From positions 1 to 38,567 of the IMG/VR virus record IMGVR_UViG_2531839486_000019: 38,567 bases of DNA; one strand, given 5' to 3'. The position numbers and the translations under genes are program-made. Under the pieces are notes generated by a model. It was not told the origin of the DNA, made no database searches, and was given only the letters and a program-made list of their open reading frames with translations. The stretch is from a virus (Duplodnaviria; Heunggongvirae; Uroviricota; Caudoviricetes). Below are positions 3,178 through 28,309 of this stretch, piece after piece. Each line of letters starts with the position of its first letter. The stretch's first letter is position 1.

Positions 3178-3204
3178 TAATTTCTATACCCCCAAACATT
3201 TACC

Positions 3205-4215: not shown

Positions 4216-4247
4216 AGTTAACACCCCCTCAATCGAGGGGGGCAAGA

Positions 4248-6536
4248 CTACAGTACAGGGGAAAGTGATACTCTTAACCCGGATGTAGACGATAGGGTTA
4301 AAGAACCAACAGCTTTGATATTGAGAATATCTCCAGTTGTAACAAATTTAACCATGTCTACCGTCTGCCCTGCGGAAGCATTCTCCTCAGAAGCTCCATT
4401 AATGCCAAAAGTTAACGATCCCGAAGATACCCCTCTGGCAAACACAGAAATTCTTACCAGCGCTGGTGCATTGAACTGAATAGTACCTCCGGATAACGCA
4501 GCGTTTGCCGTCCCATTTAACGAAGAGAATGTCACTTCTGCTCCAGATGCGAATGATGTTCCGGTTGTTACGGTTGTCTGACCAAACCCGACCATTCGGT
4601 TTTTAAAACGGTAAGAATCAAGGCTGGTCAAGCTGATATTAGAAAGTCGCGTATTTGCTGATATGTCAAGATATCCTCCAGATTCATTTATCACTCTTGT
4701 GTTAGCCGCATCAGCCAAAATAGTAGATGGCCTCAAGTTTAGCCTTCCTCCTGAAAGAACATGAATGATCCCCTCTGATGTCGAGTCTTGTGTGACATGA
4801 AAAATAGCGCTGAGATTAACATCGATATTTGAATTTGATCCTACGCGTAATATACAAGCAGCTGAACTTTCGCAAGATACATCTCCATAAAACCAACTAT
4901 TGGTTGTCTGAAAACAAGAAGGAGTTGGGGAGGAAGCGGTGTGTTTTTTTATATTTTCAAAAGTCACGCGTTCCAGCTTGCCATTGCCAAAATACTCAAC
5001 CTGCATACCGCGAGTATAACCATTAAATGACAGACGAAACGATACTGAGTTACCACAGTCAAGAGTCGTCGAAAAATGGTCAGCCCAAAGCCCAAAAGAC
5101 AAGACAGGATCGGAGGTTTCAGCAGCCAAGCCTACATGCCTTCCAGCTAATTTACCAAGGAACGCAACGTTAAATCTAATCCCCCCATTAAACCCCCGGC
5201 TGTCGATCTCAATGTCAAAGTCTGCCATATGAGGGGCATAAATCGCCCAGTCAGATTTCATACTTGATTGCAACGTAAAACCTTTGGCTACAATCCCCCT
5301 TGCGAAGGGGGTTGCAGCATTCTGCCGCTTAATGATGACCCCAGCATCCACATCAAAGGGTACAAGGTCACCAACACCAGGATAGGCAAGAGGAGGAATG
5401 CCACTGGTAGTGTTATCAACTTTCACAAATCTGGGTGTAAAAGCTGCATCACTACCTATTGTCATTCCTTCAATGTGATTGTAGTAATCAAGTACGATCG
5501 GTTTTTTATGATAAATAACAGATGTAATGTAAACAATTGAATAACCAAACCTAGATCGGGTAACTGCCTGTGCTATAAAAGCGTCATTTTGCTCTGCAAA
5601 TGATTCATCAATAATTTTTACACCGAATTGCTGAAAATTGTATGTATCCTTCTTCATAAGCCATGCAAATTTTGTTTCGTCGATAACTACTGACCCAGCA
5701 TCCGTATAGTCCTGAAGAGGTGCACCTTCGCTAATAATGTAATCCGCGCCACCTCCGTCGTTTGGCGTATAGTAGCCCAGCGTTCTGCACACCTTCCCGA
5801 CGGCTGGTGCAGTTGAGATCATATCAGCTACGTTCTGAAAGACGTTATCCACTCCACCGATCAGCAAAGACCCATGTGTTGCAGCAAGCTGTATAAGAAC
5901 ATCAGAGGCCGAACCAGAAGGAGGCAGTACGACAAATGGATTACCCGAACTGTCGAAGGCAATCATTTTGTTTGCCCTGGTAGCCGCATCAGGTAGCTGA
6001 GATATAGGATCTGGGACTCGTAACGTGCGACTAAAATTGTTGTTCGCCAGCGTATCAACATAATTCTTGGTGGCCGCATCCTGCGGGTCGCGCGGATCTC
6101 GAAGATTACGGATGTAGTTGTTAAGGGCGTCGTACCAGTTCGCAATGCTGGACGGTTTACGCAGCGCCAGGCGAAACATACTGTAGGCCTGCTGGATCAG
6201 CATCGTCAGCTTATCGAAAGCGTCTTCATGTACCTCAGCGAAGAACTTGCCCTGATTACGCAAATCAGTTTCCTGCGTAACCGGGAGGTCTCGTGATATA
6301 GAAATCTGATAACCGTTAGCCAACGCCTTCGACAGAATTACATTACCGCCGTTGTACCCTCCCGCACCAGTTACTGTGTAATCAGTATCAAGAGCCAGCA
6401 CAGCGATATTTTCATCAAGGTCAACCACCTGAACAACCAGGTCGGATTTTTTGAAAATACGGAAGGTATACGGAAATGATGTCGTAGCGCCGTTACCGGT
6501 GTATTCGTTGTGGTCAACTTCGGTTGAGACCGTCAT
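4248..6536 (-). CDS. tailspike / tail fiber with T7 gp17-like N-terminal anchor domain and large C-terminal receptor-binding (probable depolymerase) domain
   Basis: ATG 6534-6536 with RBS GGAGA 8 nt upstream; N-terminal ~110 aa resemble podovirus tail-fiber N-domain; C-terminal two-thirds AT-rich. Confidence 0.85.
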   Translation of the reverse strand: MTVSTEVDHNEYTGNGATTSFPYTFRIFKKSDLVVQVVDLDENIAVLALDTDYTVTGAGGYNGGNVILSKALANGYQISISRDLPVTQETDLRNQGKFFAEVHEDAFDKLTMLIQQAYSMFRLALRKPSSIANWYDALNNYIRNLRDPRDPQDAATKNYVDTLANNNFSRTLRVPDPISQLPDAATRANKMIAFDSSGNPFVVLPPSGSASDVLIQLAATHGSLLIGGVDNVFQNVADMISTAPAVGKVCRTLGYYTPNDGGGADYIISEGAPLQDYTDAGSVVIDETKFAWLMKKDTYNFQQFGVKIIDESFAEQNDAFIAQAVTRSRFGYSIVYITSVIYHKKPIVLDYYNHIEGMTIGSDAAFTPRFVKVDNTTSGIPPLAYPGVGDLVPFDVDAGVIIKRQNAATPFARGIVAKGFTLQSSMKSDWAIYAPHMADFDIEIDSRGFNGGIRFNVAFLGKLAGRHVGLAAETSDPVLSFGLWADHFSTTLDCGNSVSFRLSFNGYTRGMQVEYFGNGKLERVTFENIKKHTASSPTPSCFQTTNSWFYGDVSCESSAACILRVGSNSNIDVNLSAIFHVTQDSTSEGIIHVLSGGRLNLRPSTILADAANTRVINESGGYLDISANTRLSNISLTSLDSYRFKNRMVGFGQTTVTTGTSFASGAEVTFSSLNGTANAALSGGTIQFNAPALVRISVFARGVSSGSLTFGINGASEENASAGQTVDMVKFVTTGDILNIKAVGSLTLSSTSGLRVSLSPVL

Positions 6537-6614
6537 GTTAAATCTCCAGATAGTCGCAGCACCCGTTGCGCCGCATATCTGGTTATTCTATTACCTGAAA
6601 AACCACATATGGAT

Positions 6615-6656
6615 AGACAACCCATAAATAAGAACAGATATTACCTTTCAGGTGAT
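6615..6656 (+). promoter_or_regulatory. candidate promoter plus operator-like dyad upstream of the 85-aa plus-strand gene
   Basis: -35-like TAGACA (6615-6620), 17-bp spacer, -10-like GATATT (6638-6643) overlapping dyad TTACC-TTTCA-GGTGA (6642-6656). Confidence 0.4.
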
Positions 6657-6731
6657 TCGCAAAACGTGCTGGATAGCAAACAAATTATTTGCTACTGTAT
6701 AAATATACAGTTATTGCATGGAGAAGATAAG

Positions 6732-6989
6732 ATGCAGCAGTATCACTATCCACTGGAAGACGGATTTACCGAAAGGATTCACACGCCGGGAGGCGTCAGA
6801 TCACTAGTGGAGGGATCGCACTTGATGAAATTACTCCGGGATCTCGATAAGGATGGATTTAATGTCGATGGCCCACTTGCCGAACTGACTGCACTGATTA
6901 ACTACGTCACCAGCTCACAGATGTCTATGCAGGATCTGCAAACACATCTCGACTATTGTGCCGAACAATTACGAAAACAAACTACATAA
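6732..6989 (+). CDS. hypothetical 85-aa protein (cargo gene on opposite strand to late genes)
   Basis: internal ATG at 6732 preceded by GGAGAAG; the longer track ORF from 6609 lacks an RBS; TAA at 6987-6989. Confidence 0.5.
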   Translation: MQQYHYPLEDGFTERIHTPGGVRSLVEGSHLMKLLRDLDKDGFNVDGPLAELTALINYVTSSQMSMQDLQTHLDYCAEQLRKQTT

Positions 6990-6990
6990 A

Positions 6991-7012
6991 GAAAAGGCCG
7001 CGAAAGCGGCCT
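6991..7012 (-). terminator. rho-independent terminator acting on the minus strand
   Basis: stem aggccgc / gcggcct with GAAA loop; on the minus strand it is followed by TTTTCTTT. Confidence 0.5.
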
Positions 7013-7020
7013 GTGACATG

Positions 7021-7317
7021 TCACGTTCCTTTTCTGAATGCTAGCCATTCGAAAAATGATGACATTCCACCGCAGACAATAGCAAAGATGATCCCACCAA
7101 AGAAGAGAAGGCCAGCCTGCCACCACTCCCACCGCCATACATCCACAGCGCCAACCATACCAACAATCGCTCCAACAAATGGAATATAGCTCACGATGAA
7201 AGCAATGGGGGCTGCAATTATCCAGTGCAATCCCCACCATGATTCAAGCCCAGCCATAATTGCTGCCAACTGAAAAAGACCAACGACGATATAAACAATG
7301 AATCCTATAGCTTGCAT
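7021..7317 (-). CDS. small membrane protein (3 predicted TM helices), function unknown
   Basis: ATG at 7315-7317 with RBS AGGTGA; the N-terminal extension of the track ORF is unsupported; hydrophobic, Trp-rich. Confidence 0.5.
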   Translation of the reverse strand: MQAIGFIVYIVVGLFQLAAIMAGLESWWGLHWIIAAPIAFIVSYIPFVGAIVGMVGAVDVWRWEWWQAGLLFFGGIIFAIVCGGMSSFFEWLAFRKGT

Positions 7318-7513
7318 GTAGTCACCTAATTTACCCAGTAAAAATAAGAGGCCTCCCCTCAATAAGGCTTGCAACAAGAACGACTCCCTGCACAACAAAG
7401 ATGAACCAGCAAATAGCTTGAGTCTGAGGGTTAAGAAAATATTTGTAGCGGTCAATAAATAACAATCCACCAGAAATTATCACACTCAAAATAATTAAAA
7501 ACACAACACTTCC

Positions 7514-9988
7514 TTATTGCGGAGTGACATCCTGTGGTCGCCACCAGTATGTCTGGTTAAACTCTTTCTTCGAACGTTGCTCCATTTTACGCAAATAACC
7601 TGGTGAAAAATACTCCTGCATCTGGTTAAAGATCATGTGATCGAGAGCCGCCTTTAAGTACCAGAGATTCGCACCTGGCATCAGACCTTTCCCCAGCTTA
7701 ACCAGATCACCACCAGTCTGCTCATTCTTCCCTTCCACAGCATTTAACGGTATGCCCTGAGCAATCTTCACTACGTCATCAACCAGACCAGCTACCGGGC
7801 CAAGCATCGACGCCAGCGCGCCGCTTCCGTACCTAGTGTGATCTGACAATAAAAAGTCACCGTAAAGGCCAAGACCACCACCTTTCAGTAGAGCACCAAG
7901 CCAAAATTTAGCAGCATCTTCTCCTGTCATCTCGCGAGGATTACGACCAGACGCAAGGTCGTTAAGTTGCTGCGACAAAGCGCCAAGAATGGTCGTACTG
8001 GCAATAAACGTCGCAATATATGCCGCACGCCCACCAGCCGACGGCATACCCATAGCGCGTGACCAGTGACGCATAACCACCGAGATAGGGAACGATTTAA
8101 ACAGGAAAACACTTCTCGTTAATTCACCTTTCCATGTTCCACGCTGAATACCAGAACCGGTTATCAGTTGCTCACGTGCACCCGGTGTAATAACAGCCAT
8201 ATCAACTTCTTCAGTTACGGCACCGAGCAGTTTACGCATTGCCTCAAATTTCACGCGTTCAGGCTCACCAAGATGTTTAACTGCTGAATCATGGATACGC
8301 ATAATGCTTTCCGGTGTCAGCATCGTATTATTGCCGTTCCCCCAGTCCTCCTGTTGCGCCAGCTTCCATACGCTCCAGTCTGTGTCAGTAATCCCTTTGC
8401 TTTTCAGGATACGAAAATCAGAATCATCGAGGCTACGAAGGTCTGGTGTCCGTGACACTACTTCTCCCAGGCTTCCCATCATGGTTACGCCATAGGCGCG
8501 CTTGTGCGCATCTGACCATGCTGTAAGCCCACTGGCACGCATTACCGCCGTTGCAGCCCAACGAGACACAGACGGCCCCATATTATCCATCGCCCAGCGG
8601 TTAACGCTGCCAAGTAGAGATTCCATCGCCAGACCAGCGCGGCGCGCCCGCGCAAGTTCTGTACGGTTCGTTGGGTCCATAGCTTCAAGCTGGTTGCGGA
8701 ATAACTGGTTCATTGGAAGGTTGGTAACCTTCGCAGACAGATACATGGTTCCAAGATCAGAGAACGATGACAGCAACGCGGATCCGAGTCTGCTGGCAAC
8801 CAGCCAGTTGCGGATATTGTCAGACCATCGCGCGATGTGCGGATTCGCTACAGGCTGTGTCTTTCCGGAAATAAAGTTGTACAGATTCTCTGTGTTGTTC
8901 GCCAGCCGCTCGACTTTACCGGTTTTACTCGGGTTAGCTGTTGCCGTTTCTGCCTTCACCTGATCAAGAAGAGAGCGGAAAACATGATCGGGGTTTGGGC
9001 CATATGTTTCCACCAGTGCAATATCTTTACTGATACCTTCAAGGTGACCGACCATGATTTCCCATAGAGAGCGATCGCCATAAAGTTGCTGATATTGCAG
9101 ATAGGAATCTGCATCTTTGAAATGTATCTGTCGTGATGCATTACCACGGTTAGCACGTGCGCCGGAAATTCGCATTCCGGTATCAGTAAGCTTATTCAGC
9201 CCACCAGTAGCGATCGTGTTATAAGCCTCTCCAAGAAATGCAGACAACTCGGCATCGTTCATCAGTTGTCCATCGGCTCGGGGATAATATTTGCGATCCA
9301 GCTTACCTATAACATCGCTAACCCATTTATCTTTTGATACCGCCCCAACCTTTTCCATAGAATGATGTTGAGGGATCCCCCAGTTTTCGAGATAGCCAAT
9401 GTCCCCACCAGCATCATTAAACCGGCGGCGCAGCAGCTCTGTAACTTCTCTCCACGCCTTAGCACCTTTTCTTGCTTTAGCATTGCCAGTATTTTGCCCC
9501 CGCATTTCATATACCAGGTCACGTACGCCCGCTTCATCTTCAAACAGACCAAAAAAGCGAGGATCAACTGCTTCGAATGCCTCCTGCAATTGACTCAATG
9601 CATAATCACGGGTGGCTTTTGTTCTGGATTCAACAGAGAGGAAATTCGATTTACCGTCTGCATTAAAAGCAATAGTACGGTTAAGAGCGCCAAGTTTCCC
9701 ATCAGCCCCTTGATAGCTATTGATAAATTTATCCAATCTCTGACGTGCGGCTATAGTGAGGGCCACACGACGTTTCTTTAATGCCGCTTCTCGCTGTAAT
9801 CCTTCAGATGCCAATTGTGCTGCACGATATAGCCGCTCTGATTCGGAAAGTTGTCTCCACGACATCGGGTCATCACGAGCAATGGAGCGCATATTTCGAT
9901 AAATGCGGTCTTCAATGTTCTGTATTTCTCGCGCCGTTAACGTGCGCTGCGCCGCCTGCTGGACCGCTTGTATACATTCCTGTCTCAT
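7514..9988 (-). CDS. internal virion (ejection/core) protein, T7 gp16-like by position and size
   Basis: 824-aa ORF at the end of the structural operon just before the tailspike; synteny with T7-like internal core proteins. Confidence 0.65.
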   Translation of the reverse strand: MRQECIQAVQQAAQRTLTAREIQNIEDRIYRNMRSIARDDPMSWRQLSESERLYRAAQLASEGLQREAALKKRRVALTIAARQRLDKFINSYQGADGKLGALNRTIAFNADGKSNFLSVESRTKATRDYALSQLQEAFEAVDPRFFGLFEDEAGVRDLVYEMRGQNTGNAKARKGAKAWREVTELLRRRFNDAGGDIGYLENWGIPQHHSMEKVGAVSKDKWVSDVIGKLDRKYYPRADGQLMNDAELSAFLGEAYNTIATGGLNKLTDTGMRISGARANRGNASRQIHFKDADSYLQYQQLYGDRSLWEIMVGHLEGISKDIALVETYGPNPDHVFRSLLDQVKAETATANPSKTGKVERLANNTENLYNFISGKTQPVANPHIARWSDNIRNWLVASRLGSALLSSFSDLGTMYLSAKVTNLPMNQLFRNQLEAMDPTNRTELARARRAGLAMESLLGSVNRWAMDNMGPSVSRWAATAVMRASGLTAWSDAHKRAYGVTMMGSLGEVVSRTPDLRSLDDSDFRILKSKGITDTDWSVWKLAQQEDWGNGNNTMLTPESIMRIHDSAVKHLGEPERVKFEAMRKLLGAVTEEVDMAVITPGAREQLITGSGIQRGTWKGELTRSVFLFKSFPISVVMRHWSRAMGMPSAGGRAAYIATFIASTTILGALSQQLNDLASGRNPREMTGEDAAKFWLGALLKGGGLGLYGDFLLSDHTRYGSGALASMLGPVAGLVDDVVKIAQGIPLNAVEGKNEQTGGDLVKLGKGLMPGANLWYLKAALDHMIFNQMQEYFSPGYLRKMEQRSKKEFNQTYWWRPQDVTPQ

Positions 9989-9993
9989 TTAAT

Positions 9994-11796
9994 TTAACCT
10001 CTCAAGAAACACGCCACAGCGACATCAAACAGGCTGGAATCCTGTATTGCCTGCTCACTTTCCCTGTTCGCTTCATCCAGTACTTCACGCGCGCTGCGCG
10101 ATTGTGGATTACCATCATCATCCAGCACGGTGATTATCATGTCAGGTGATTCAAGCAGCGAGTCTTCAGCTATGCGCAGATCAATATCTCCTGCCTGATC
10201 CGCCATCATTTTTTGTTCTGCCTGTTGCAATATTTTATCAGGCTCAAAAGGAGCTACTTCGTCTGGCGTCCTGACCTCTGCTGTTTTATAGAATGAAACA
10301 GCCTGAGCATTAAGTTCACTTTCAGCCTGCTGTCTCCGTGCCAGTTCTGCTCGAGCTTCAAAAAACTGACCGCCAGGCTCATGCGGTGCCAACGCGTTAC
10401 GGGAAAATTCCAGGCGTTCTTGTGCCTGCCGGATTCGTTGGTCAATATCGCGAAGTCTGACCTGTTTATCTGATCGAGCACGAGACAAAGATTTACCGCT
10501 ACCGGTTGGCTCTTCTGCAAGAATTTGTGCGCGCTGTTCAGTGAGATTTTCAATAATTCGTTGGCTATTAGCGATTTCAGACTGGTAAACCTGTCTATCG
10601 CCACGCGGCAAAAGCTGCGCGGCCTGTTCTTCAAGCAACCGATTTTCTATAGCGCGCGCCGTTACTCCATCATCTACAGATGACAGAGCCTCATTAACTG
10701 CCTGAGACAGCAGACTCTTGCGCCCAGGAATTTCACTGAAAGATGCAGACTCAACAATGCTGGCAACGTCTACAGGTCTCCCCTGGCTAACATCAGACAT
10801 AGCTTTTCGCAGAGCCTGAATGTGAGAATTGCGCGAAAGCACGTTGATCGGCACGCCGGGCGCAATATCAATTTCAGCATGATGAGCGGCATTCGCCGCC
10901 AGTGCAGCATCAACATCAACTGGTGAAAAATTTGGTGCGCTTGTAGACTCGCCGCGAGAGTTAATAAATCTGCCGACACCACCAAACGCCACTCCAAGAA
11001 CAGCATCAATAGCAATTGCCTGTCGATCCAACACATCATACTGGTTAGCCATTTCGCTATAGCCACCATCACGAAGCGTTTTTGCAGTAAGCCCACGCTG
11101 TGCCATACCGAACGCAATATTTGTACCTGCGGCATAGGCAATATCTGGCGTTGCACGTACTGCTGTTGCTGCGGCGCGTCGCACTGAACTTTCACCCGTC
11201 CGCGGAAGCTGGGCCGCCACACCTTCCGCCAGCGCACCACCAGCACGTAACCCGAGGCTCATAGGGATCAGTGTTCCGGCACCAGCAGTAATACCCTGCA
11301 CTAATCCTGCTTCCTGCGCCGTCCTAAAATCAACACCCTGTGCTGTCAGCCGTTCAAACTCAGAAAAACCCTGTAGCGAAGTTACCGCCGCTGCACCTCC
11401 GACCGGACCACCGAGCGTTGTACCGACAACAGCCTGCCCGCCCATATCGAACAACCCATAAAGAACCTGCCCGGCGGTTCCAGTTGTCGCCGCATCAGGC
11501 GTCAGCCGCTTAACCTGCTGCTCTGCTAGTTTTCTCTGCTCGGCAATGTATGAAACTGAAGTGTCATTGAGCGAGGTGTTTTCGTTAACAAACTGAGCAA
11601 TCGGGGATACGATTTTATCCATCCCTGCCCATAGCAACTGATCTGGCTTTGCCACCAGCCCGGAGTACAAACCAGACAATGCCGCTCCTACAGCATTGTC
11701 GAAAAAACCAACATCGCTGTTAAAGCCCGCTGGATTTGATGCTGCTTCGTCAAGCTGCTGATTCTGGTTTACTGGATTAAGGCCAAAGTAACTCAT
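9994..11796 (-). CDS. internal virion protein
   Basis: 600-aa ORF; its start overlaps the upstream gene stop (ATGA); Ala/Gly-rich segments. Confidence 0.6.
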   Translation of the reverse strand: MSYFGLNPVNQNQQLDEAASNPAGFNSDVGFFDNAVGAALSGLYSGLVAKPDQLLWAGMDKIVSPIAQFVNENTSLNDTSVSYIAEQRKLAEQQVKRLTPDAATTGTAGQVLYGLFDMGGQAVVGTTLGGPVGGAAAVTSLQGFSEFERLTAQGVDFRTAQEAGLVQGITAGAGTLIPMSLGLRAGGALAEGVAAQLPRTGESSVRRAAATAVRATPDIAYAAGTNIAFGMAQRGLTAKTLRDGGYSEMANQYDVLDRQAIAIDAVLGVAFGGVGRFINSRGESTSAPNFSPVDVDAALAANAAHHAEIDIAPGVPINVLSRNSHIQALRKAMSDVSQGRPVDVASIVESASFSEIPGRKSLLSQAVNEALSSVDDGVTARAIENRLLEEQAAQLLPRGDRQVYQSEIANSQRIIENLTEQRAQILAEEPTGSGKSLSRARSDKQVRLRDIDQRIRQAQERLEFSRNALAPHEPGGQFFEARAELARRQQAESELNAQAVSFYKTAEVRTPDEVAPFEPDKILQQAEQKMMADQAGDIDLRIAEDSLLESPDMIITVLDDDGNPQSRSAREVLDEANRESEQAIQDSSLFDVAVACFLRG

Positions 11797-18714: not shown

Positions 18715-18764
18715 ATACACTCCTGCAATAAAGGGGCCGAAGCCCCTTGTCGGATTCGCGAGGC

Positions 18765-19100: not shown

Positions 19101-19110
19101 CGATATCACC

Positions 19111-19548
19111 TTAACCAGTTACTTTTGAGCGGATCGGATACGGCGTATTGGCATCAACATCAAGACTGATACCCGCAGTGAATTCGCCAGCCGTTAGTGG
19201 GCCAGTTGCGACGGAGTAGTTAACGCGCAGATATCGCTGAACACCGGCAGGCACCTTTGCAGAAACAACTCGTTTACCTGCTGTCAGGGCGGTCTTTGCC
19301 AGTGCGCCACTATCATAAATAGTGGTCCATGAGCTGTTATTCTCACTCGTCTGCAACTGGATGTTTACAGTTGCATCACCGCTTGCCGCGGCGGCTGTGT
19401 TAACCAGCGCCCAAAACTCAAGCGGGTAACCCACGCCGATATCACGACGTTTTCCGTCAATTGGACCGAGATCGATTACGTCAGTAGAAGCCGCGGTATT
19501 CGTAACCGCCTGAGCTTCGGAGAACATCAACAGTTTGTCGGTGATCAT
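19111..19548 (-). CDS. hypothetical structural protein (capsid decoration candidate)
   Basis: ATG 19546-19548 with RBS GGAGA; lies directly after the major capsid gene. Confidence 0.5.
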   Translation of the reverse strand: MITDKLLMFSEAQAVTNTAASTDVIDLGPIDGKRRDIGVGYPLEFWALVNTAAAASGDATVNIQLQTSENNSSWTTIYDSGALAKTALTAGKRVVSAKVPAGVQRYLRVNYSVATGPLTAGEFTAGISLDVDANTPYPIRSKVTG

Positions 19549-19599
19549 CTTCTTTCTCCATTAGTGGGTCTGTTACGACCCACAGGTTAATAACAGGCG

Positions 19600-20592
19600 T
19601 TACACCACGCGGGCTTCTGTTTCCAGAAGCGCATCAGTTTCACGGATTGGTACACCACGGAATGAAGTCCACCACTCGCCTTCTGTCTCTTTTACGCTGA
19701 TCGCCAGAGATGTTTTCTCCAGAGATTGCAGATCAAGAGCCTGGCCTACAGTGCGGTTCATGTAGAACACCGGGCGACCCATGCCACGATTTGGAATGCG
19801 ATGCAGTGCTTTAACCATCAACTTCGCAATATTTGCGGCAGAGGAAGGTTCTGAAAGATTGCTGACATCGATGTTTGCAATGCGAACAACATAACGCCAG
19901 TCACGCAGAGCAAGTCCGTTGTCCCATTTGTAATGGGTACGGTAGCCTTCGTACTTGCCGCCATTCGCATCTTCCAGTGTCACCTGGCCTTTATCTTCCA
20001 TCTGGATGCCAGCCTTCTGCCCTTTCGGGAAGATGCCATGCACGGTGTTTTCGCCCCACACCACTAACCAGATTGAGGTGTTATCTGTACCCGTGCCACC
20101 AGCATCAATGATGTTCTGAGCATTACCCGCAGACAGGCTGGAATAGCGGGAGGACAGTCCCATAAACTGCTGAGGGTTAACGCTGGAATCACCATAAAAC
20201 AGCGTCTGCGCCATCTGCTGATTCATCGCTTCAATAAATGCGCGGTCTTCAGACAGGCGGAATTCGGCGGTATTGCCGTTCAGATCAGCCAGTGACTTAT
20301 CGACTTCAGCATAGGTTTCCAGCATGCCAACGGAATCTGTTACCTGCACTGTGGTTGATTTGCTTGGCTGTACGCCATAGTTCAGCAAACGCCAGGTAGC
20401 TGAAGGTAAACCAGAACGAATGGTGGTTCGGTGTCCGGTAGGAAGGTTCCCTTCGACAAAAGGCATATCCTGAAGGATCGGGTTAGTTTGACCGAGAAGC
20501 TCGATAATCTTATCGACTTTCCCGTTTGGATCGACGCGCTTACCCCAGTCAGCCAGCGTTAGCGCAGTTAAGCCTTTAACAGCCATTGTCAT
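19600..20592 (-). CDS. major capsid protein (T7 gp10-like)
   Basis: 330 aa after the scaffold gene; RBS GAGAGG favours the start at Met3 (20584-20586). Confidence 0.8.
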   Translation of the reverse strand: MTMAVKGLTALTLADWGKRVDPNGKVDKIIELLGQTNPILQDMPFVEGNLPTGHRTTIRSGLPSATWRLLNYGVQPSKSTTVQVTDSVGMLETYAEVDKSLADLNGNTAEFRLSEDRAFIEAMNQQMAQTLFYGDSSVNPQQFMGLSSRYSSLSAGNAQNIIDAGGTGTDNTSIWLVVWGENTVHGIFPKGQKAGIQMEDKGQVTLEDANGGKYEGYRTHYKWDNGLALRDWRYVVRIANIDVSNLSEPSSAANIAKLMVKALHRIPNRGMGRPVFYMNRTVGQALDLQSLEKTSLAISVKETEGEWWTSFRGVPIRETDALLETEARVV

Positions 20593-20600
20593 TTCCTCTC

Positions 20601-21302
20601 TTATTTGCCATAGAGCACTTCGGCCGCACTACGCTGGCCTTCATTACCACCGGTGACCATGCCATCTTCAGACATCGCCTTTCCGATTTTCACGAACGTT
20701 TTGACCAGATCAGGGTGATTACCCAGCCCGGTGGTGTTCAGATATTCTTTGAGTTCAGGTGTCCCGAACTGGTCAAGCGCACGCTGTGCGGCGCTAAGGT
20801 TAGAAATCAACTTGTCGCCACCGATTTCTTTGTCAGCTTTTACATCAGCAGCCCACTGCTCGGTTGTTTTCTGCCAGGCTTCTGCCTGGCGCTGCTGCAC
20901 ACCTGCCAGAATCTTCGGATAAGCATCAACCAGCTTTTGCGCTTGCTCGTTGGTCAGGTTAAGTTCTCGCGCCACCGGCTCGAATTCCTTCAACGCTTCT
21001 GTATCCAGCTCTACGCCTTCGGCAGCCTGAAACTCGTACTTCTCAGGCGCACCCTCTGGTTTATCGCCGTCCTTTTTTTCATCCTGTTTATCGTTTTCAG
21101 GCTTTTTGTCATCAGCAGGTTTATCGCCATCAGCAACAGGTTGTGGCTTATCACCTTCCGGTTGTGATGGATCACCAACTGGAGCAGGGTTATCACCTGC
21201 AGGCGCTGACGGTTCTGACGCAGCCGGAGCTGCTCCACCATCGACTGGTTGCTCATTGCAAAGACGGCGATACAGCAAACGCTCAAATAAATTCATGATC
21301 AC
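20601..21302 (-). CDS. scaffolding protein
   Basis: acidic, Pro/Asp/Lys-rich N-terminal region then helical C-terminus; between portal and capsid genes. Confidence 0.7.
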   Translation of the reverse strand: MIMNLFERLLYRRLCNEQPVDGGAAPAASEPSAPAGDNPAPVGDPSQPEGDKPQPVADGDKPADDKKPENDKQDEKKDGDKPEGAPEKYEFQAAEGVELDTEALKEFEPVARELNLTNEQAQKLVDAYPKILAGVQQRQAEAWQKTTEQWAADVKADKEIGGDKLISNLSAAQRALDQFGTPELKEYLNTTGLGNHPDLVKTFVKIGKAMSEDGMVTGGNEGQRSAAEVLYGK

Positions 21303-21595
21303 TCCTGTTCACTGGCCTCTTTGGCCATCTTCAAATACTGTTCAGGGCAATGCGCCATAACGCGCTGAAACAGTTCCAGCGCCAGATTGCGTTGCCCCTC
21401 ATTAAATGCCATTGCCATAGCGTCCATCGGTGATATAGCGGAAAACACACGGCCTTTCTCCAGCACCGACCAGACAACGCGACGCCCCTGTTCACTGCTC
21501 ATGACAAAGCGAATGTCATCAATTTCACGCTGCGCCATGTCACGTTGCTTACGGGCGTTTTCTTCTTTCAGTTGATCGTCTTCGTAATCTGTCAT
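21299..21595 (-). CDS. hypothetical 98-aa protein between portal and scaffold genes
   Basis: ATG overlaps portal stop and its own stop overlaps the scaffold start. Confidence 0.5.
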   Translation of the reverse strand: MTDYEDDQLKEENARKQRDMAQREIDDIRFVMSSEQGRRVVWSVLEKGRVFSAISPMDAMAMAFNEGQRNLALELFQRVMAHCPEQYLKMAKEASEQE

Positions 21596-23271
21596 TGTGA
21601 TTGCCCACCCTGACCACTAACTGCATTCGCCATAGCTGACAAAACACTCGGATCCGAAGTTTTAGCTTCGCTTAGCGTCTTGGCACCCTGTGCCGCCGCC
21701 ATCCCCATCGCCATCATTTGTTGCTGCTGTTGTTGCTGTGCCCGTTGCTGGCGAGCCTGCTCAACCTGTTCCTGCGGAACAATGACGGTTGGAGACACTC
21801 CGGACATATCAGCGAATGCATCGATCGCCTGATCAACGTTGAGTTTGTCGAGAGCTTCTGGTTTCGCTTGCGCAAGTTGACCAATGAAGTTGACCGTAGA
21901 CGCCAGACTGGACAGGCCGATAGACTTCTGCGCCTGAGCCATGACGGAAATGTATTCGACCTTCAGGGGCATACCTTCCATCGCGTCAGGCGGTGGCGGC
22001 AGCATGTTTTTACGCACCATCATCGAGAAAGCGCGGTCAATGAGAGGATTAAGACATTCGTCGTTCAGACGCTCCAGAACCGGACCCAACATCAGAAGTT
22101 TTTCTTCTTTCATTTCGATCACCGCTTCAACAGGCATCGAGCGGGTATTGATGTTCTGCAACATCATGAACAGATCGACAAAGTAGGCGCTGTTAATGAT
22201 TTGACGAGTGTCCTGAATGTCTGCTACCAGATCTGCTGTACTGGGGTTAACCAGATAAGCAGGCCTGAAACCATCCTGACCAGTAATCTGATCGATATAC
22301 GTGATGTCGCCAGGAAGAAGGGAGGCGCGCTGATTCTTGAGGGAAGTCGGAGCAACCATCGGCGGATTGGTGGCTTTATCAATCAACTGCGACTTGCGCT
22401 TCTGGAGAAGCTGCAATGCCTTAACAGGTCCAAGCGCCAGCATACCCGGGCATGATGATCCATAAACATCTTCGCCGTTAACTTCCCAGCGCGGAGCCAT
22501 AATTGGAAACTCATCGAATCCGGACTCACGCAACAACTTGTCGTTATCGCCACCAACCTCGTAATAAACCGATTTGAATGGCTTGTTCTTGCTATCCAGC
22601 TTCGATGTATCGCGGTCAATGTTCGGGTAAACCGAATGCATCACTTCAATCCACTTCTCGTAGGTGCCGCTTTCCCACATGCTTTTTACGGATTCGCTGA
22701 CGTTATTTAGTCCGAATTCCTGAACAAGCTGACGAACAGTCATAGAGAACTTGCGAAAACAGGTGTCCACACTGCCACGAGGTGAGTTAGCCAGGTAGTA
22801 ACTTCCTATCGGGAATGGCATTGTACGAATGATGTCCTCGTCATCCTCCAGCACCGCCATTGCACCGGTGCTGTATGTGCCGAGGCTTCCGTATAACTGC
22901 GGCAGCGACTGATAGAGATTCGACTTATTGAACATATCGTTCATGCGGTTCTGCACTGCCTCAAGCCACAACTTAACAGGGCCATAATCCATCATTTCAG
23001 GATCTGGCGTAGCCAGGCGAAACCACGGACGCGCGGGGCTTGTGATGCCTGACATCATGCCGCTGGCGAGAGTGCGCGCCGCCATAGTCCCGGTCGAATC
23101 AATAATGCGTGTATTGCGTCGATCGTTACGGTTGACCTCAGAAGTCAGAAAGCGGGAACCACGCGGGTTGATGTAATCACTCAACTCGCGCCAGTGCGGC
23201 TCGAACGACTGACGCTCGCTTTCAAGTTGTGCGAACTGTTTGTTCAATCGCTCTTTAGTTGTTTCCGCCAT
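21592..23271 (-). CDS. portal (head-to-tail connector) protein, podovirus type
   Basis: 559 aa; ATG 23269-23271 with RBS GGAG 8 nt upstream; poly-Gln/Ala C-terminal tail; sits after the terminase genes. Confidence 0.85.
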   Translation of the reverse strand: MAETTKERLNKQFAQLESERQSFEPHWRELSDYINPRGSRFLTSEVNRNDRRNTRIIDSTGTMAARTLASGMMSGITSPARPWFRLATPDPEMMDYGPVKLWLEAVQNRMNDMFNKSNLYQSLPQLYGSLGTYSTGAMAVLEDDEDIIRTMPFPIGSYYLANSPRGSVDTCFRKFSMTVRQLVQEFGLNNVSESVKSMWESGTYEKWIEVMHSVYPNIDRDTSKLDSKNKPFKSVYYEVGGDNDKLLRESGFDEFPIMAPRWEVNGEDVYGSSCPGMLALGPVKALQLLQKRKSQLIDKATNPPMVAPTSLKNQRASLLPGDITYIDQITGQDGFRPAYLVNPSTADLVADIQDTRQIINSAYFVDLFMMLQNINTRSMPVEAVIEMKEEKLLMLGPVLERLNDECLNPLIDRAFSMMVRKNMLPPPPDAMEGMPLKVEYISVMAQAQKSIGLSSLASTVNFIGQLAQAKPEALDKLNVDQAIDAFADMSGVSPTVIVPQEQVEQARQQRAQQQQQQQMMAMGMAAAQGAKTLSEAKTSDPSVLSAMANAVSGQGGQSQ

Positions 23272-23285
23272 TTCAATGACTCCGG

Positions 23286-23492
23286 TTACTGACCAAGCAG
23301 CGTTTTACCGCTGGTATTAGCGGTTGATGTGTCGCCCTGAGAACCGGTAAGCAGCGTAGAACTACGACCAGCAGCAGCGCGACGGCGACGAGTTTCTTCG
23401 TCGCGGGCATCAACAACGGCGGCATCCTGCTCCTGTGGTGCTGCCTGAACTTCTGGTGTTGCAGGCACTGACGGTGAGCTACCCATGCACAT
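23286..23492 (-). CDS. hypothetical small acidic low-complexity protein upstream of portal
   Basis: ATG 23490-23492 with GGAG 8 nt upstream; low-complexity sequence, so weakly supported. Confidence 0.3.
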   Translation of the reverse strand: MCMGSSPSVPATPEVQAAPQEQDAAVVDARDEETRRRRAAAGRSSTLLTGSQGDTSTANTSGKTLLGQ

Positions 23493-23560
23493 ATCAATGA
23501 CTCCGTACGCAATTAAATTATTACCAATTTAACCACATATGATTTATTTATCGTAGATAG

Positions 23561-23597
23561 TTGACATTTAACGCACAAATTATTACCTTTCAGGTAA
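23561..23597 (+). promoter_or_regulatory. candidate plus-strand promoter with operator-like dyad driving the tRNA operon
   Basis: perfect -35 TTGACA (23561-23566); dyad TTACC-TTTCA-GGTAA (23583-23597) over the -10 region; exact -10 hexamer ambiguous. Confidence 0.4.
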
Positions 23598-23919
23598 GCA
23601 AAGGGTTCATTCCGGTTATTAACCTGACTGGCTTGTCGTTAAATTGAACAGGTGGAGTGAGCTTTTATTTTGAGCAGTACGGCGTATGGCACATGCGCCG
23701 ATAGCGGTCTGGATACGTTTAAGGGGCACCCTCCCTTGCTCGGGCAAACGAACCAGGTAGCCGGAATGTGCAAGTCGAGCGGTTTTATTCCGCGCACGGG
23801 GATTCACCATCCCGGCGATTCGGTGTGACACCTCGGAAGAGACGAGGGTACAACGATGAGAGCATTTATGGAGCCGCGACAAAGTGTGGCGCCTTAACAG
23901 GCTAAGTGCTCTCAGCGTT

Positions 23920-23996
23920 GTGGCATTAGCTCAGTTGGACAGAGCAACCGCCTTCTAAGCGGTTGGTCGCAGGTTCGAATCCTGCATGCCACGCCA
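23920..23996 (+). tRNA. tRNA-Arg (anticodon UCU), phage-encoded
   Basis: 77-nt cloverleaf: acceptor GTGGCAT/ATGCCAC, D-stem GCTC/GAGC, anticodon stem ACCGC/GCGGT with loop CTTCTAA, T-arm GCAGG-TTCGAAT-CCTGC, discriminator G, encoded CCA. Confidence 0.85.
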
Positions 23997-24039
23997 GAAT
24001 CACGCCTAAGGACCGTGATGCCAGAAGTTCCAGGTGCTT

Positions 24040-24081
24040 GGCGGTGATGGTTTCCCTTGAAGGACTATCACCGCCCTTTTT
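24040..24081 (+). terminator. rho-independent terminator downstream of the tRNA
   Basis: stem ggcggtgat (24040-24048) / atcaccgcc (24067-24075) followed by CTTTTT. Confidence 0.5.
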
Positions 24082-24159
24082 ACAGCAGGACGCCATTGCG
24101 ATGACTTCATGCTGTAAACCCGTACAGCCACGGAAGGCATAACTCATTGCTTCCAGTTC

Positions 24160-24183
24160 GCCCGGTTCGCCGGGCATTTTTTT
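24160..24183 (+). terminator. second terminator-like hairpin ending 12 nt before the 123-aa gene start (attenuator candidate)
   Basis: stem gcccgg / ccgggc with ttcg loop, then A + TTTTTTT (24177-24183); RBS AAGGTGAGA follows directly. Confidence 0.45.
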
Positions 24184-24194
24184 AAGGTGAGATT

Positions 24195-24566
24195 ATGAAC
24201 GACCAGCAAATCGAAAAAGAAATCGTTGAGAAAGGAAAAACGGCACCGCGCGTTACGCCAGACCATATCGAAGGCATTATTGCTCAGGAGGCATATTTCA
24301 CAGCAGAAGATGGTGCCTTTGGCAAAGCCATAAAAGCGAAACATACTGGCGGAGAGGTAAACTACCAGCCGCACGAATCACTTTCTCTGCTGACGTTCTG
24401 CGTCCTGGTACTGCGCAACGGCTTCACCGTCACCGGAGAGAGTGCCTGTGCAAGTCCGGAAAATTTTGATGCAGAAATTGGTCGGAAGATTGCCCGGCAG
24501 AATGCTGTAAACAAAATCTGGATGCTCGAAGGTTACTTGCTGAAGCAGAAGCTAAGCGAGCAATAA
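24195..24566 (+). CDS. hypothetical 123-aa protein (cargo gene co-oriented with the tRNA)
   Basis: ATG 24195 with RBS AAGGTGAG 5 nt upstream; TAA at 24564-24566; terminator downstream. Confidence 0.6.
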   Translation: MNDQQIEKEIVEKGKTAPRVTPDHIEGIIAQEAYFTAEDGAFGKAIKAKHTGGEVNYQPHESLSLLTFCVLVLRNGFTVTGESACASPENFDAEIGRKIARQNAVNKIWMLEGYLLKQKLSEQ

Positions 24567-24586
24567 CACCGTGACATGTCACAAAC

Positions 24587-24614
24587 AGCCAGCCGATGAG
24601 CTGGCTTTGTTTTA
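24587..24614 (+). terminator. rho-independent terminator of the plus-strand cargo gene
   Basis: stem agccagc / gctggct, loop cgatga, then TTGTTTTA. Confidence 0.6.
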
Positions 24615-24656
24615 TCCTCATCAGAGGATATCAACGACATTATCCCCACCAGCGGA

Positions 24657-26132
24657 TTAAGCATACGGGTCATAATCTGTGATGGCCTTGCCTTGCTGGT
24701 TCTGCTGCCCAGGAATTCGCAGACGCTTCGACACAGGGAAAGCAAACGTCAGCAGTAGCGCATCGCCTTTACCCGGCGAACGCCCAAGTCGCTCTTTGAT
24801 ATCTTCCTTCGGTTCGATAACGATTTTACCGTCCACTCGAACTTTATACTCTGCCGCCGACAGGTCGTCCGCTGTTTCCTGGTCATCCAGCATCCCGCCG
24901 AGCCTCAGCCATGTCTTACATGAGTTGAACATCTCCCCACGCTTGTTAAGCATCTGCGGGTCAGTGGACGCACCGCCGAACGGAACAAGTTGCCATGTAC
25001 GTCCCCAGCCATCACCGATTGACTTCAGACCAGTTCCGTAACCGAAGTCGATGAACACTGCGTCAGCCTGGTACTGGTCTTCAAAGTCAGCGATACGCTT
25101 CGCCATTATCAGATCGTCAGTGGTCTTGTTGCCAGTCCATAGCACCTTACTATGCAACCCCTGCCGCAGGTATATCACCGCGTCATCAACGCCTGAATAT
25201 GCCGGGTCAACACCGATTATCACCGGAGCATGTGCCACCTGCGCAGCGGTTACCACCCGTTTCATTGCCTCATCAGTAAGACCGGTAGGGATAAACTGCA
25301 ATTCAGATGCATCAGGGAATATGCCGCGCACACGGATTTTAACGAAGTCGCTGTCTTCCCCGTAGTCATCAACCCATTTCTGCAACTGCTGTTTGTTAGT
25401 ACCTTCCACCGTCCGGCTGTCTATCTGCGCACACTTCCAGCGGTGCTTGTATTTGCGGAAGCATTCACGGAATCGCCCGGTATTACGCGTCGGGTTTCCG
25501 AACGCCACCCAAATAATCTCAGTGTCTTCGTCCGTAAGCGCACCCTCAGCAACTTCCCACACCAGATCCGCAATGTTCGACGCTTCATCAAACACCACGA
25601 TGATGCGTTTGCGCTCGTTGTGTAGTCCCGCGAACGCCTCAGTGTTGTGCTCAGACCAGGGGATTGCGTCAGCTCGCCACCGCTTGTCGTGCCCAGGATC
25701 ATTGCTGTACATCGCGGTAGCGGTACAGGTAAACCAGTCTTTCGTGATAGCAAGGTTCGACCACTTGATAATTTCCGGCCAGGTCTTCGTTCGTAGCTGG
25801 TTGTCGGTGTTGGCGGTCACCACGACCTTACAATCCTCGCAAGTGGACATGCCCCAGTTGATCAGCATTGAGATGAATGCGGATTTACCAATACCGTGAC
25901 CAGAAGCGCGTGCCAGCATAAGCGGCTGATAACGCGTCTCTGGATTCTGCAGGTGATCACGTATCTCTCGGAACGCATCGGCCTGCCACTGACGTGGGCC
26001 GGTAGCATGTGCCAGTTCAGTCCCCTCTTCCCCCCACGGGAACGCATAGAGGGCATAGCCAAGCGGATCGTGAGTGAACCCTGCAATATCCTCGATTAAC
26101 TGCTCTTCAGGAGATAACGCTGTATCTGTCAC
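24657..26132 (-). CDS. terminase large subunit
   Basis: 491 aa with N-terminal ATPase (Walker A-like GHGIGKS) and C-terminal nuclease-like region; GTG start overlaps small-subunit stop (GTGA). Confidence 0.9.
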   Translation of the reverse strand: MTDTALSPEEQLIEDIAGFTHDPLGYALYAFPWGEEGTELAHATGPRQWQADAFREIRDHLQNPETRYQPLMLARASGHGIGKSAFISMLINWGMSTCEDCKVVVTANTDNQLRTKTWPEIIKWSNLAITKDWFTCTATAMYSNDPGHDKRWRADAIPWSEHNTEAFAGLHNERKRIIVVFDEASNIADLVWEVAEGALTDEDTEIIWVAFGNPTRNTGRFRECFRKYKHRWKCAQIDSRTVEGTNKQQLQKWVDDYGEDSDFVKIRVRGIFPDASELQFIPTGLTDEAMKRVVTAAQVAHAPVIIGVDPAYSGVDDAVIYLRQGLHSKVLWTGNKTTDDLIMAKRIADFEDQYQADAVFIDFGYGTGLKSIGDGWGRTWQLVPFGGASTDPQMLNKRGEMFNSCKTWLRLGGMLDDQETADDLSAAEYKVRVDGKIVIEPKEDIKERLGRSPGKGDALLLTFAFPVSKRLRIPGQQNQQGKAITDYDPYA

Positions 26133-26725
26133 TGATTACCATCCTGACGTTCTTTGAGTCGCTTCCTGGCTGCTGCTATGCGATCAGCAATTGTCACATT
26201 CACATTAACATCCAGACGTTCTTTGAACGCGTTGACATCAACATGCTTACCAATCAGCTCAAGGTTCTTCACCTTGTCCGGCCATTTGATTTTTTTGAGG
26301 ATTGTCTCTATCGAATCCTCGTTCATGTTCATGATGGTCGATGACAGATCAAAGCCGCTAAGCGTAGTGCGCCAGATTTTCGGCCACTCGCGGATTGGTT
26401 TAAGGCTCCCATCGTCGTTGAGGATGTCGATCACGTCCATCTGGTCGATCTCCACCAGGCGCATGAGAACGTAATCAGCACTGACGCGCATTCGTTTGTT
26501 GCGTTCCTCCATCAGCTCGGCAATCCGTTTCTGAATGCGTTCATCTCGCATCATGACACTGGCTTTAACTGCCGCTGTATTTGGGGAGAATCCTGCGTTA
26601 ATCGCTGCCTGAGTCTGGTTTTCAGGCGTTTTGATGTATGACTGGCAATAAGCCTCCTGCATTGCTGTTAGTGGCTTAAATTGCGTTGATTTGCGTTTAT
26701 AGGTTTTAGTTTCAGCAGGCATCAT
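26129..26725 (-). CDS. terminase small subunit
   Basis: start moved to ATG 26723-26725 (MMPAETK...); the upstream 26 track codons translate a tandem DNA repeat and are unlikely coding. Confidence 0.7.
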   Translation of the reverse strand: MMPAETKTYKRKSTQFKPLTAMQEAYCQSYIKTPENQTQAAINAGFSPNTAAVKASVMMRDERIQKRIAELMEERNKRMRVSADYVLMRLVEIDQMDVIDILNDDGSLKPIREWPKIWRTTLSGFDLSSTIMNMNEDSIETILKKIKWPDKVKNLELIGKHVDVNAFKERLDVNVNVTIADRIAAARKRLKERQDGNQ

Positions 26726-26732
26726 AACCACC

Positions 26733-26764
26733 GTGGTAATAGTTACCGTTGTGGTAATAGTACC
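26733..26764. repeat. tandem direct repeat GTGGTAATAG(T)TACC x2 immediately upstream of the terminase small gene
   Basis: copies at 26733-26747 and 26751-26764; each is itself a GGTAA...TTACC dyad. Confidence 0.6.
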
Positions 26765-26768
26765 ATGC

Positions 26769-26794
26769 AAAATAAAGCCGCCATAGTTGGCGGC
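26769..26794 (-). terminator. hairpin plus T-run (minus strand) just upstream of the terminase operon
   Basis: stem gccgcca / tggcggc with tagt loop; on the minus strand it is followed by TTTATTTT. Confidence 0.45.
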
Positions 26795-26843
26795 AGTATT
26801 CAAAACACATCAAATTCATCATGCATAATCTACTCGTGACATG

Positions 26844-28114: not shown

Positions 28115-28116
28115 AG

Positions 28117-28308: not shown

Positions 28309-28309
28309 C

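Follow-up and report, generated by a model that had tools for sequence, protein, structure and literature searches.

The viral record IMGVR_UViG_2531839486_000019 of IMG/VR, a member of the Caudoviricetes, is 38,567 nucleotides (nt) long and was analysed in full as "the window". It is almost certainly an integrated and apparently complete prophage of the genus Uetakevirus, of the phiV10/epsilon15 type, situated at the 3' end of guaA in an Escherichia coli chromosome. The region 4248-26803, singled out in a preliminary description made from the sequence alone, is its late region. That description saw a mosaic of T7-ordered structural genes under lambdoid regulation and likened it to temperate podoviruses of the epsilon15/phiV10 type with a glycoside hydrolase family 19 (GH19) endolysin. 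The central likeness is correct: the structural region is 97-98% identical in DNA to phiV10 and other Uetakevirus records, and the endolysin matches PF00182 with 36.7 bits (cut-off 25.5). The union of a T7-like virion with lambda-like control is a fixed, long-described architecture of the genus, and no mosaic peculiar to the present element. This is an ordinary Uetakevirus, in which the sole unusual part is a rare cassette of tailspike and O-antigen acetyltransferase genes. Nothing in the analysis contradicts the identification.

Relationship to phiV10 and epsilon15

From 7511 to 26843 the window aligns with phiV10 as a single colinear block of 19.3 kb at 97.8% nucleotide identity. Across about 90% of its length the structural region shows 97-98% identity to phiV10, phiv142-3, HEMP4, PAS61, ZX5 and O157 typing phages 9 and 10. 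Its identity to Salmonella phage epsilon15 and Enterobacter phage Tyrion is 76-81% over 42-81% of the length. Protein by protein, every structural protein matches that of phiV10 from end to end at 96-100% identity, and the two repressors are identical. The genome organisation (terS-terL, portal to tailspike, conversion gene, lysis cassette, attachment (att) site and integrase, leftward recombination genes, repressor, rightward replication genes) is colinear with the annotations of both phiV10 and epsilon15, allowing for circular permutation at att. The signature virion proteins of Uetakevirus are present as well: the gp7-type capsid (PF20911, 497 bits), the gp10 staple (PF21628, 172 bits), the Bbp16-like cement protein (PF21190, 160 bits) and the PF12236 portal (624 bits).

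The whole-genome comparison with epsilon15-like phages that the preliminary description had proposed gave VIRIDIC-style similarities of 79.7% to phiV10 and 37.5% to epsilon15. The guideline of the International Committee on Taxonomy of Viruses for a genus is a whole-genome nucleotide similarity of at least about 70% to a recognised member. By the usual thresholds the prophage belongs to the same genus as phiV10 and probably to a separate species, being less than 95% similar to it.

The portal and capsid also place the virion among the podoviruses, as had been expected. The best solved relatives of the portal are Carin-1 (E-value 6e-179) and cyanophage P-SCSP1u, not a siphovirus or myovirus, and those of the capsid are the podoviruses BPP-1 (1e-128), Carin-1 (1e-87) and epsilon15, through gp7 (2e-85). 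The capsid is thus nearer to that of Bordetella phage BPP-1 than to epsilon15 gp7. The head-shell genes are 35-43% identical to those of epsilon15, against 80-94% for portal, adaptor, nozzle and large terminase, a contrast suggestive of an ancient exchange of modules inside a group that the taxonomy of the records treats as one genus.

Could this instead be a P22-like (Lederbergvirus) prophage, the other common kind of temperate, tailspike-bearing podovirus in enterobacteria? A tailspike followed by an O-antigen modification gene, early genes of the Ead/Ea22, DUF551 and Eae types, and patches of 94% nucleotide identity in common with ST160 and SE1 are all features of that kind. However, the shared patches are restricted to 27456-29849. 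The portal is of the T7 type (PF12236), the capsid belongs to the epsilon15 gp7/BPP-1 family, the adaptor and nozzle match those of Carin-1, LME-1 and T7, and no P22-type record is among the best matches to the structural region. The chance of a P22-like prophage is practically negligible.

Integration site

The first 1178 bases of the window are 99.8% identical to K-12-type E. coli chromosomes, in which yfgH and yfgI abut the end of guaA. Host DNA at the left of the window amounts to 1.16 kb (bases 1-1161), and the left prophage junction that follows carries the 17-nt core ATTGAGTGGGAATGATT, which has been reported as attP/attB of phiV10, epsilon15 and ZX5 (PMC9782041). An E. coli draft contig (GCA_000357025.2) matches the other end, 34317-38567, over 4,251 nt with no mismatch. 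The identical contig also carries guaB and guaA; 191 bp past the integrase start that ends the window, at the stop codon of guaA, is the second att core. The integrase that had been noted earlier is of the tyrosine type (Table 1); it is 98% identical to phiV10 int and adjoins guaA on the same contig, and the phiV10 record assigns its type to the P4 integrase family.

Bases 1-1071 were considered as phage cargo, the record of phage TL-2011b containing the same genes, and this was rejected: they are host genes that adjoin guaA in E. coli chromosomes. In the TL-2011b record they are labelled 'putative outer membrane lipoprotein', and that record probably includes host flank.

Gene order and coupling in the late region

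The late genes lie on the minus strand in the order terS, terL, portal, a scaffold-like protein of 231 amino acids (aa), capsid, adaptor, nozzle, internal or ejection proteins and tailspike. Tight translational coupling had been claimed from overlapping start and stop codons at 11793, 14306, 14851, 15315, 17786 and 18391, and when read directly all six junctions were found there. The junction at 11793 is ATGA, with an overlap of 4 bp. The remainder are TAATG or TGATG with an overlap of 1 bp, those at 14306 and 18391 requiring the ATG start and not the longest open reading frame (ORF). There are two or three further overlaps (terS/terL, portal/Bbp19-like and possibly Bbp19-like/231-aa). The annotation of phiV10 overlaps at the same six junctions and that of epsilon15 at most of them; the equivalent junctions of T7 have no overlap. 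Because the 19.3 kb are colinear with phiV10 at 97.8%, neither the gene order nor the overlaps are due to chance.

The T7-like virion module

How close to T7 are these genes? The likeness is real but remote, residing in synteny, profile and fold. The claimed T7 order stands from portal to fibre or spike, which parallels T7 genes 8-17, but it does not extend to the terminases, which come first here whereas T7 genes 18 and 19 follow the tail fibre. Homologues of the portal, the adaptor (gp11) and the nozzle (gp12) are present in that order, as in T7-type podoviruses. The labels gp11-like, gp12-like and gp13-16-like are reasonable by synteny, profile and fold, and were already known for the group, but there is no significant pairwise similarity to T7. 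When 17 proteins of the window were compared with 14 of T7 by phmmer and blastp, no similarity was significant, and the 837-, 600- and 824-aa proteins showed none that was detectable to gp15 or gp16. For the portal and the 231-, 154- and 181-aa proteins the T7 positional counterpart was the top or joint-top match, at a non-significant level.

The AlphaFold2 model of the adaptor matches the Carin-1 connector in Foldseek (E-value 2.7e-16, template-modelling (TM) score 0.82), the adaptors of LME-1 and PhiM1, tail tubular protein A of KP32, and T7 gp11 in three independent entries (7box, 7ey7 and 6r21; E-values 4e-6 to 9e-5, TM scores 0.53-0.59, probability 1.00). In the RefSeq record of epsilon15, a note on gp11 gives HHpred similarity to tail tubular protein A of T7. 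With hhalign, shallow family alignments (effective sequence numbers 2.0 and 1.2) gave no match to T7 gp11 and gp9. A 22-member profile of the nozzle family did align with T7 gp12, colinearly though weakly (E-value 3e-4, probability 40%). This family is abundant in public data (18,316 clusters of representatives at E<=0.001; 9,160 at E<=1e-30), and many of its proteins exceed the present one by 100-300 residues and carry insertions that follow about residue 100 or about residue 300. The portal, adaptor, nozzle and fibre anchor of LME-1 have been described as structurally T7-like and nearest to those of Carin-1, itself called a T7-like virus (PMC12407071).

Behind the nozzle lie two small and three large internal proteins. 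The large ones are 98-99% identical to phiV10 p18-p20 and sit where T7 has gp15 and gp16. Residues 250-399 of the 837-aa protein form a domain like lysozymes or transglycosylases, with PDB matches to Gp29 of 9vvp and to an endolysin; sequence searches of the PDB with the 600- and 824-aa proteins found no relative. On bioinformatic grounds, a review recognises ejection proteins resembling gp14, gp15 and gp16 in epsilon15 (PMC8954989). NCBIfam gave no family for any of ten structural proteins searched.

A different origin of these genes would be a recent hybrid, unique to this element, in which the virion module of a lytic T7-type phage (Autographiviridae) was captured under lambdoid prophage control. 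The parallel between the portal-to-fibre order and T7 genes 8-17 would suit such an event, as would a portal in the T7 gp8 Pfam family, the T7_gp14 match and the gp11-fold adaptor. Pairwise similarity to T7 is not significant, however, and the shallow profiles against gp11 and gp9 are empty. The terminases stand first and not last. No phage RNA polymerase was found: every ORF outside the structural block has at most 416 aa, the integrase being the largest early ORF, and the main ones belong to other families. Above all, the arrangement is colinear with phiV10 (97.8%) and shared with epsilon15, by which the hybrid is effectively refuted; we consider it highly improbable. Because it is so shared, the architecture is old and genus-wide, and the earlier description had the type right in matching its mosaic to epsilon15 and phiV10.

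The protein in the scaffold position

Between portal and capsid lies the 231-aa protein, which falls in the PHROG 458 'protease' family and carries protease or peptidase labels in RefSeq and NCBI. The epsilon15 record derives the label from similarity to a Salmonella 'putative endoprotease'. The protein has no relative in Pfam, NCBIfam or the PDB, and the homologues listed are all at least 82% identical to it. Its N-terminal third is of low complexity (Pro/Ala/Asp/Lys) and variable in length. The AlphaFold2 model is all-helical with zero strands, at a low confidence (predicted local distance difference test score, pLDDT, of 44). The 'protease' label is unsupported and stands on weak grounds; these features plausibly suit a scaffolding protein better than any protease fold known to us, and we regard the protein as a candidate scaffold.

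Accessory cassettes and the tailspike/acyltransferase pair

Judged by alignment, the real mosaic joints are the accessory cassettes; set against phiV10, the structural block shows no mosaicism. The most distinct cassette is that at 3183-6053 (2.9 kb), which holds the acyltransferase gene and residues 233-762 of the tailspike and has a G+C content of about 0.40, against about 0.50 elsewhere. Megablast with this cassette gave no match, either among 50,697 phage records or among 5,426 complete E. coli genomes. The acyltransferase is a divergent allele of the Oac-type serotype-conversion gene, and tblastn detected no similarity between it and the Oac of phiV10.

The tailspike joins a conserved anchor to a rare receptor-binding domain. 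Its N-terminus is 74-80% identical to Uetakevirus tailspikes and matches the Carin-1 tailspike in the PDB (4e-27); the N-terminal domain of the T7 fibre (PF03906) scores 19.4 bits, below the cut-off of 25.2. The best phage match to the C-terminal receptor domain, at 49%, is in an Aeromonas phage, and the exact protein sits in a cluster of three members. The exchange of receptor domains behind a conserved anchor, together with an adjacent modification gene, is a documented habit of Uetakeviruses (PMC10408124). Tentatively, and with a little less than even confidence, we suggest that 3183-6053 is a matched recognition-and-conversion pair, directed at an E. coli O-antigen without a characterised phage and imported from beyond the known coliphage pool.

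Other cassettes differ as well. Three proteins of phiV10 lack a counterpart at 6990-7510, namely p23 (the Bro-N antirepressor), p22 and p21 (a small membrane protein), and a 98-aa protein stands in their place. The nin-type stretches 27456-28694 and 28928-29849 differ from phiV10, and this part of the window (27456-29849) has patches of 94-95% nucleotide identity in common with P22-like, Shiga toxin (Stx)-converting and P1 phages. The lysis cassette (1266-3182) is 74.8% identical to that of phiV10 in nucleotide sequence (Rz 38%, holin 63% and endolysin 85% in amino acids), the flanking structural genes being far closer.

Immunity and regulation

The repressor lies between divergent early operons. 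In Pfam at E<=0.01 it matches solely helix-turn-helix (HTH) families, with no peptidase S24 self-cleavage domain. It is the same protein as ORF21 of ZX5; in that phage, the roles of repressor and antirepressor have been shown by overexpression (PMC9782041).

Operator-like sites surround the repressor gene. The motif ATTACC-N5-GGTAAT, searched as TTACC-N4-RGGT, has 16 matches where 0.2 are expected, corresponding to about 11 distinct sites, all intergenic and at the starts of operons (3157, 6641, 23583, 30420, 30482, 32428, 32767, 32796, 32813, 33526 and 33590). One site of the cluster between the cro-like and repressor genes is overlapped by a sigma-70-like promoter at 32782-32754 on the minus strand. 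Beyond the immunity region the motif precedes the portal operon, the tailspike gene, the lysis cassette or oac, and the nin-type genes, and the same pattern is found in phiV10. We dropped the idea that the motif is new: the RefSeq record of epsilon15 already annotates it as repressor sites, including those before terS, the portal operon and the tailspike.

How might such a repressor be relieved? A near-consensus LexA-box-like site, TACTGTATAAATATACAGTT, lies upstream of the 85-aa p24-like gene. An equivalent box is found about 22 bp upstream of phiV10 p24 (20822) and epsilon15 gp19 (19841). The p24-like protein matches weakly the C-terminal part of a PHROG anti-repressor and of phiV10 Bro-N p23. 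The conserved box suggests that it is a candidate SOS-controlled small antirepressor of the genus. An SOS-controlled antirepressor scheme has been summarised for the related Salmonella phage SPC32H (PMC7380047). The arrangement of LexA box and p24-like gene matches that scheme and agrees with the overexpression results on the identical ZX5 repressor (PMC9782041); we propose a switch of the SOS-controlled antirepressor type.

The phrase lambdoid regulation is thus a loose description. The layout of the immunity region, the lambda-P homologue and the nin-type genes bear it out; the non-S24 repressor, the LexA-boxed antirepressor-like gene, RecE/RecT recombination and the operator-like sites at late operons do not, and the switch looks like one in which a non-cleavable repressor is opposed by an SOS-controlled antirepressor. 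No N- or Q-type antiterminator was found among the early ORFs by Pfam or PHROG match, though a small divergent one may exist.

Completeness of the prophage

Some points set limits to the identification as a complete and inducible Uetakevirus. Similarity to epsilon15 is only about 38%, even though the taxonomy lines put both in one genus. The roles of the 600- and 824-aa proteins are assigned from position and PHROG labels. No sigma-70-like promoter was found at the operator-like sites of the portal and tailspike genes. The Bro-N antirepressor of phiV10 is absent, so the route to induction leans on the role proposed for the p24-like protein.

Is the prophage then a defective or non-inducible remnant of a Uetakevirus? 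This would be compatible with the identification, and the missing Bro-N antirepressor and small membrane protein p21 speak for it, together with a right-hand att copy that lies outside the window. However, the structural, lysis, replication and integration ORFs are all full length relative to phiV10 (96-100% coverage and identity), both att cores and the LexA-boxed p24-like gene are intact, and the functional phage PAS61 likewise has no annotated Bro-type gene at that position. A remnant is unlikely, and we retain the reading of an apparently complete Uetakevirus prophage.

If so, the following course may be proposed from homology. Terminase would package DNA through the T7-family portal into an HK97-type capsid reinforced by cement and staple proteins, and a dodecameric gp11-fold adaptor and a hexameric nozzle would build the short tail. 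Overlapping stop and start codons would couple translation and so yield the parts in fixed proportions. Six tailspikes would bind and cut the O-antigen, and the small and large internal proteins, one of them with a cell-wall-cutting domain, would be ejected to bridge the periplasm. For the control proposed next there is some experimental support in relatives. In the lysogen, a non-cleavable double-HTH repressor would bind ATTACC-N5-GGTAAT operators on either side of its own gene and before other operons. Induction would probably proceed through the LexA-controlled small antirepressor and not through self-cleavage of the repressor. The acyltransferase encoded beside the tailspike gene would alter the host O-antigen, so that superinfection is blocked.

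The biological weight of these results is small: for this group the architecture, the site of integration, the operators and the T7-like parts of the tail had already been described or annotated. What is added is one more Uetakevirus, probably a species of its own, in which the tailspike/acyltransferase pair is rare. Pairs of this kind serve to predict or engineer O-serogroup specificity (PMC10408124).

Other features of the window

The coordinates of all features are collected in Table 1. In the rightward early operon the initiator has HTH_36 and DnaT domains and matches PHROG families of replication initiation and O-like proteins. RecE-like and RecT proteins of the leftward operon are encoded by two overlapping ORFs here, in epsilon15 and in PAS61; phiV10 annotates one fused recET. 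The boundary between RecE-like and RecT, near 34876, coincides with 35169-35346, a part of the window without an alignment to phiV10. Apart from a type II methyltransferase (36460-37122), PADLOC gave no defence system for the accessory genes.

An antisense insert with a tRNA gene separates terL from the portal operon and is accompanied by several terminator-like hairpins. In the phiV10 record a coding sequence, PhiV10p04, runs across the place of this tRNA on the other strand; it is probably a spurious annotation. A sequence search of the PDB with terL found no relative.

Table 1. Positions of genes and sites in the window
Feature	Position	Strand	Evidence
yfgH (1-516) and yfgI (532-1071), host chromosome	1-1071	+	Pfam Gly-zipper, DUF5384
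att core ATTGAGTGGGAATGATT, left prophage junction	1162-1178	-	exact single match in window, 0 expected by chance
Lysis cassette: holin-like membrane protein (2647-3060), holin (2367-2660), GH19 endolysin (1751-2377), Rz-like spanin (longest ORF 1266-1886)	1266-3060	-	Pfam Phage_holin_8, Phage_holin_3_7, Glyco_hydro_19, DUF2514
O-antigen acyltransferase, Oac type	3205-4215	+	PF01757, 97.5 bits; PHROG O-acetyltransferase
Tailspike: anchor (about aa 1-230), receptor-binding domain (aa 233-762)	4248-6536	-	sequence comparison
LexA-box-like site TACTGTATAAATATACAGTT	6693-6712	+	about 20 bp upstream of p24-like gene
p24/gp19-family protein, 85 aa	6732-6989	+	97.6% identical to phiV10 p24
98-aa protein in place of phiV10 p21-p23	7021-7317		PHROG 3075; 229-member cluster, common in E. 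coli
Large internal/ejection-type proteins: 837 aa (11793-14306), 600 aa (9994-11796), 824 aa (7514-9988)	7514-14306	-	PHROG head protein / virion structural protein
Small internal virion proteins: 181 aa (T7 gp14 family), 154 aa (T7 gp13 position)	14306-15315	-	PF24072 T7_gp14, 31.2 bits (cut-off 27); PHROG internal virion protein, both
Tail nozzle, 823 aa, functional counterpart of T7 gp12	15315-17786	-	PDB 8ck1_A 'Tail Nozzle' of Carin-1, E 1e-216; LME-1 orf18
Head-to-tail adaptor, T7 gp11 fold, 201 aa	17786-18391	-	AlphaFold2 model (pLDDT 85) and Foldseek
Head shell: capsid (19600-20592), Bbp16-like cement (19111-19548), 111-aa protein (18765-19100), gp10-like staple (18391-18714)	18391-20592	-	Pfam GP7, Bbp16, Gp10-like
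231-aa protein, scaffold position	20601-21296	-	PHROG 458; RefSeq and NCBI labels
68-aa gp3-like protein (23286-23492), portal (21592-23271), Bbp19-like protein, 98 aa (21299-21595)	21299-23492	-	portal PF12236 Head-tail_con (T7 gp8 family); PF25181
tRNA-Arg(UCU) (23920-23996), gp49/gp66-family protein (24195-24566)	23920-24566	+	ARAGORN; PF13876, 119.5 bits
Terminase: small (26129-26803), large (24657-26132)	24657-26803	-	terS PF03592, 104 bits; terL PHROG 2, E 9e-53; 99% identical to phiV10
Rightward early operon: cro-like (32498-32728), DnaT/HTH initiator (31316-32131), lambda-P homologue (30534-31334), nin-type genes (DUF1064, DUF7739, Ead/Ea22, DUF551), 113-aa regulator (26844-27185)	26844-32728	-	Pfam, PHROG
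Three operator-like sites between cro-like and repressor genes	32767-32827	.	TTACC-N4-RGGT core of ATTACC-N5-GGTAAT
Immunity repressor, 194 aa, HTH domains only	32883-33467	+	PF01381 and related HTH families
Two operator-like sites flanking promoter of leftward early operon	33526-33602	.	promoter TTGACA-17-AATTAT at 33560-33588, sigma-70-like, 10/12 matches
Leftward early operon: RecE-like PDDEXK nuclease (34073-34894), RecT (34891-35772), AlpA/Xis-like (35822-36070), PerC-like (36180-36479), MT-A70 methyltransferase (36460-37122)	33762-37122	+	Pfam
Tyrosine integrase, Arm-DNA-bind_3 N-terminal domain, 416 aa	37317-38567	-	PF13356, PF22022, PF00589

Comparison with known systems

The phiV10 group (phiv142-3, PAS61, ZX5 and TL-2011b) shares with this prophage the full gene order, the structural block at 97.8%, an identical repressor, the att core and the guaA site. 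It also shares the GH19 endolysin, a tailspike anchor followed by an O-antigen acyltransferase, and the tRNA-Arg insert. In contrast to phiV10, the present prophage has a different tailspike receptor domain, an unrelated Oac allele, a lysis cassette of 75% identity, other nin-type genes and separate RecE and RecT, and it has no Bro-N or p21.

Epsilon15, the type member and a model system of cryo-electron microscopy, shares the module order, the operator motif, the LexA box before gp19, the att core and the integrase, and its portal, adaptor, nozzle and terL are 80-94% identical in amino acids. It differs in the capsid, cement and staple (35-43%), the 600- and 824-aa proteins (27-32%), the repressor (42%) and the replication genes. 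Serotype conversion in epsilon15 is by polymerase genes, whereas here it would be by an acyltransferase.

For the marine phage Carin-1 and the Legionella phage LME-1 the complexes of portal and tail have been solved. Carin-1 has homologues by sequence of the portal (6e-179), connector (3e-26), nozzle (1e-216) and tailspike N-terminus (4e-27). The sequence matches of Legionella LME-1 are only to the adaptor (4e-5) and nozzle (2e-15). Both phages differ in their hosts, their early regions and their unrelated receptor-binding parts.

T7 has in common the order of portal, scaffold position, capsid, adaptor, nozzle, small and then large internal proteins, and fibre or spike, as well as the portal Pfam family, the gp14 family, the gp11 fold and the weak colinear profile match to gp12. 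Unlike T7, this phage places its terminases first, has no phage RNA polymerase, is temperate with an integrase and att, carries a tailspike in place of the fibre and has extra cement and staple proteins. The wall-cutting domain is in the 837-aa protein here, whereas in T7 it is at the N-terminus of the gp16-sized protein.

With the lambdoid phages the prophage shares a repressor gene flanked by operator clusters (the sites here being predicted) with divergent promoters, a cro-like gene, the lambda-P homologue (PF06992, 190.6 bits) in an initiator and loader pair, an integrase beside att, and nin-type patches exchanged with P22-like and Stx phages. Compared with lambda, it has no S24 domain, and no N or Q was found; it has instead a LexA-boxed small antirepressor-like gene, predicted operators before late operons, RecE/RecT where lambda has Exo/Beta, and an integrase of the Arm-DNA-bind_3 type.

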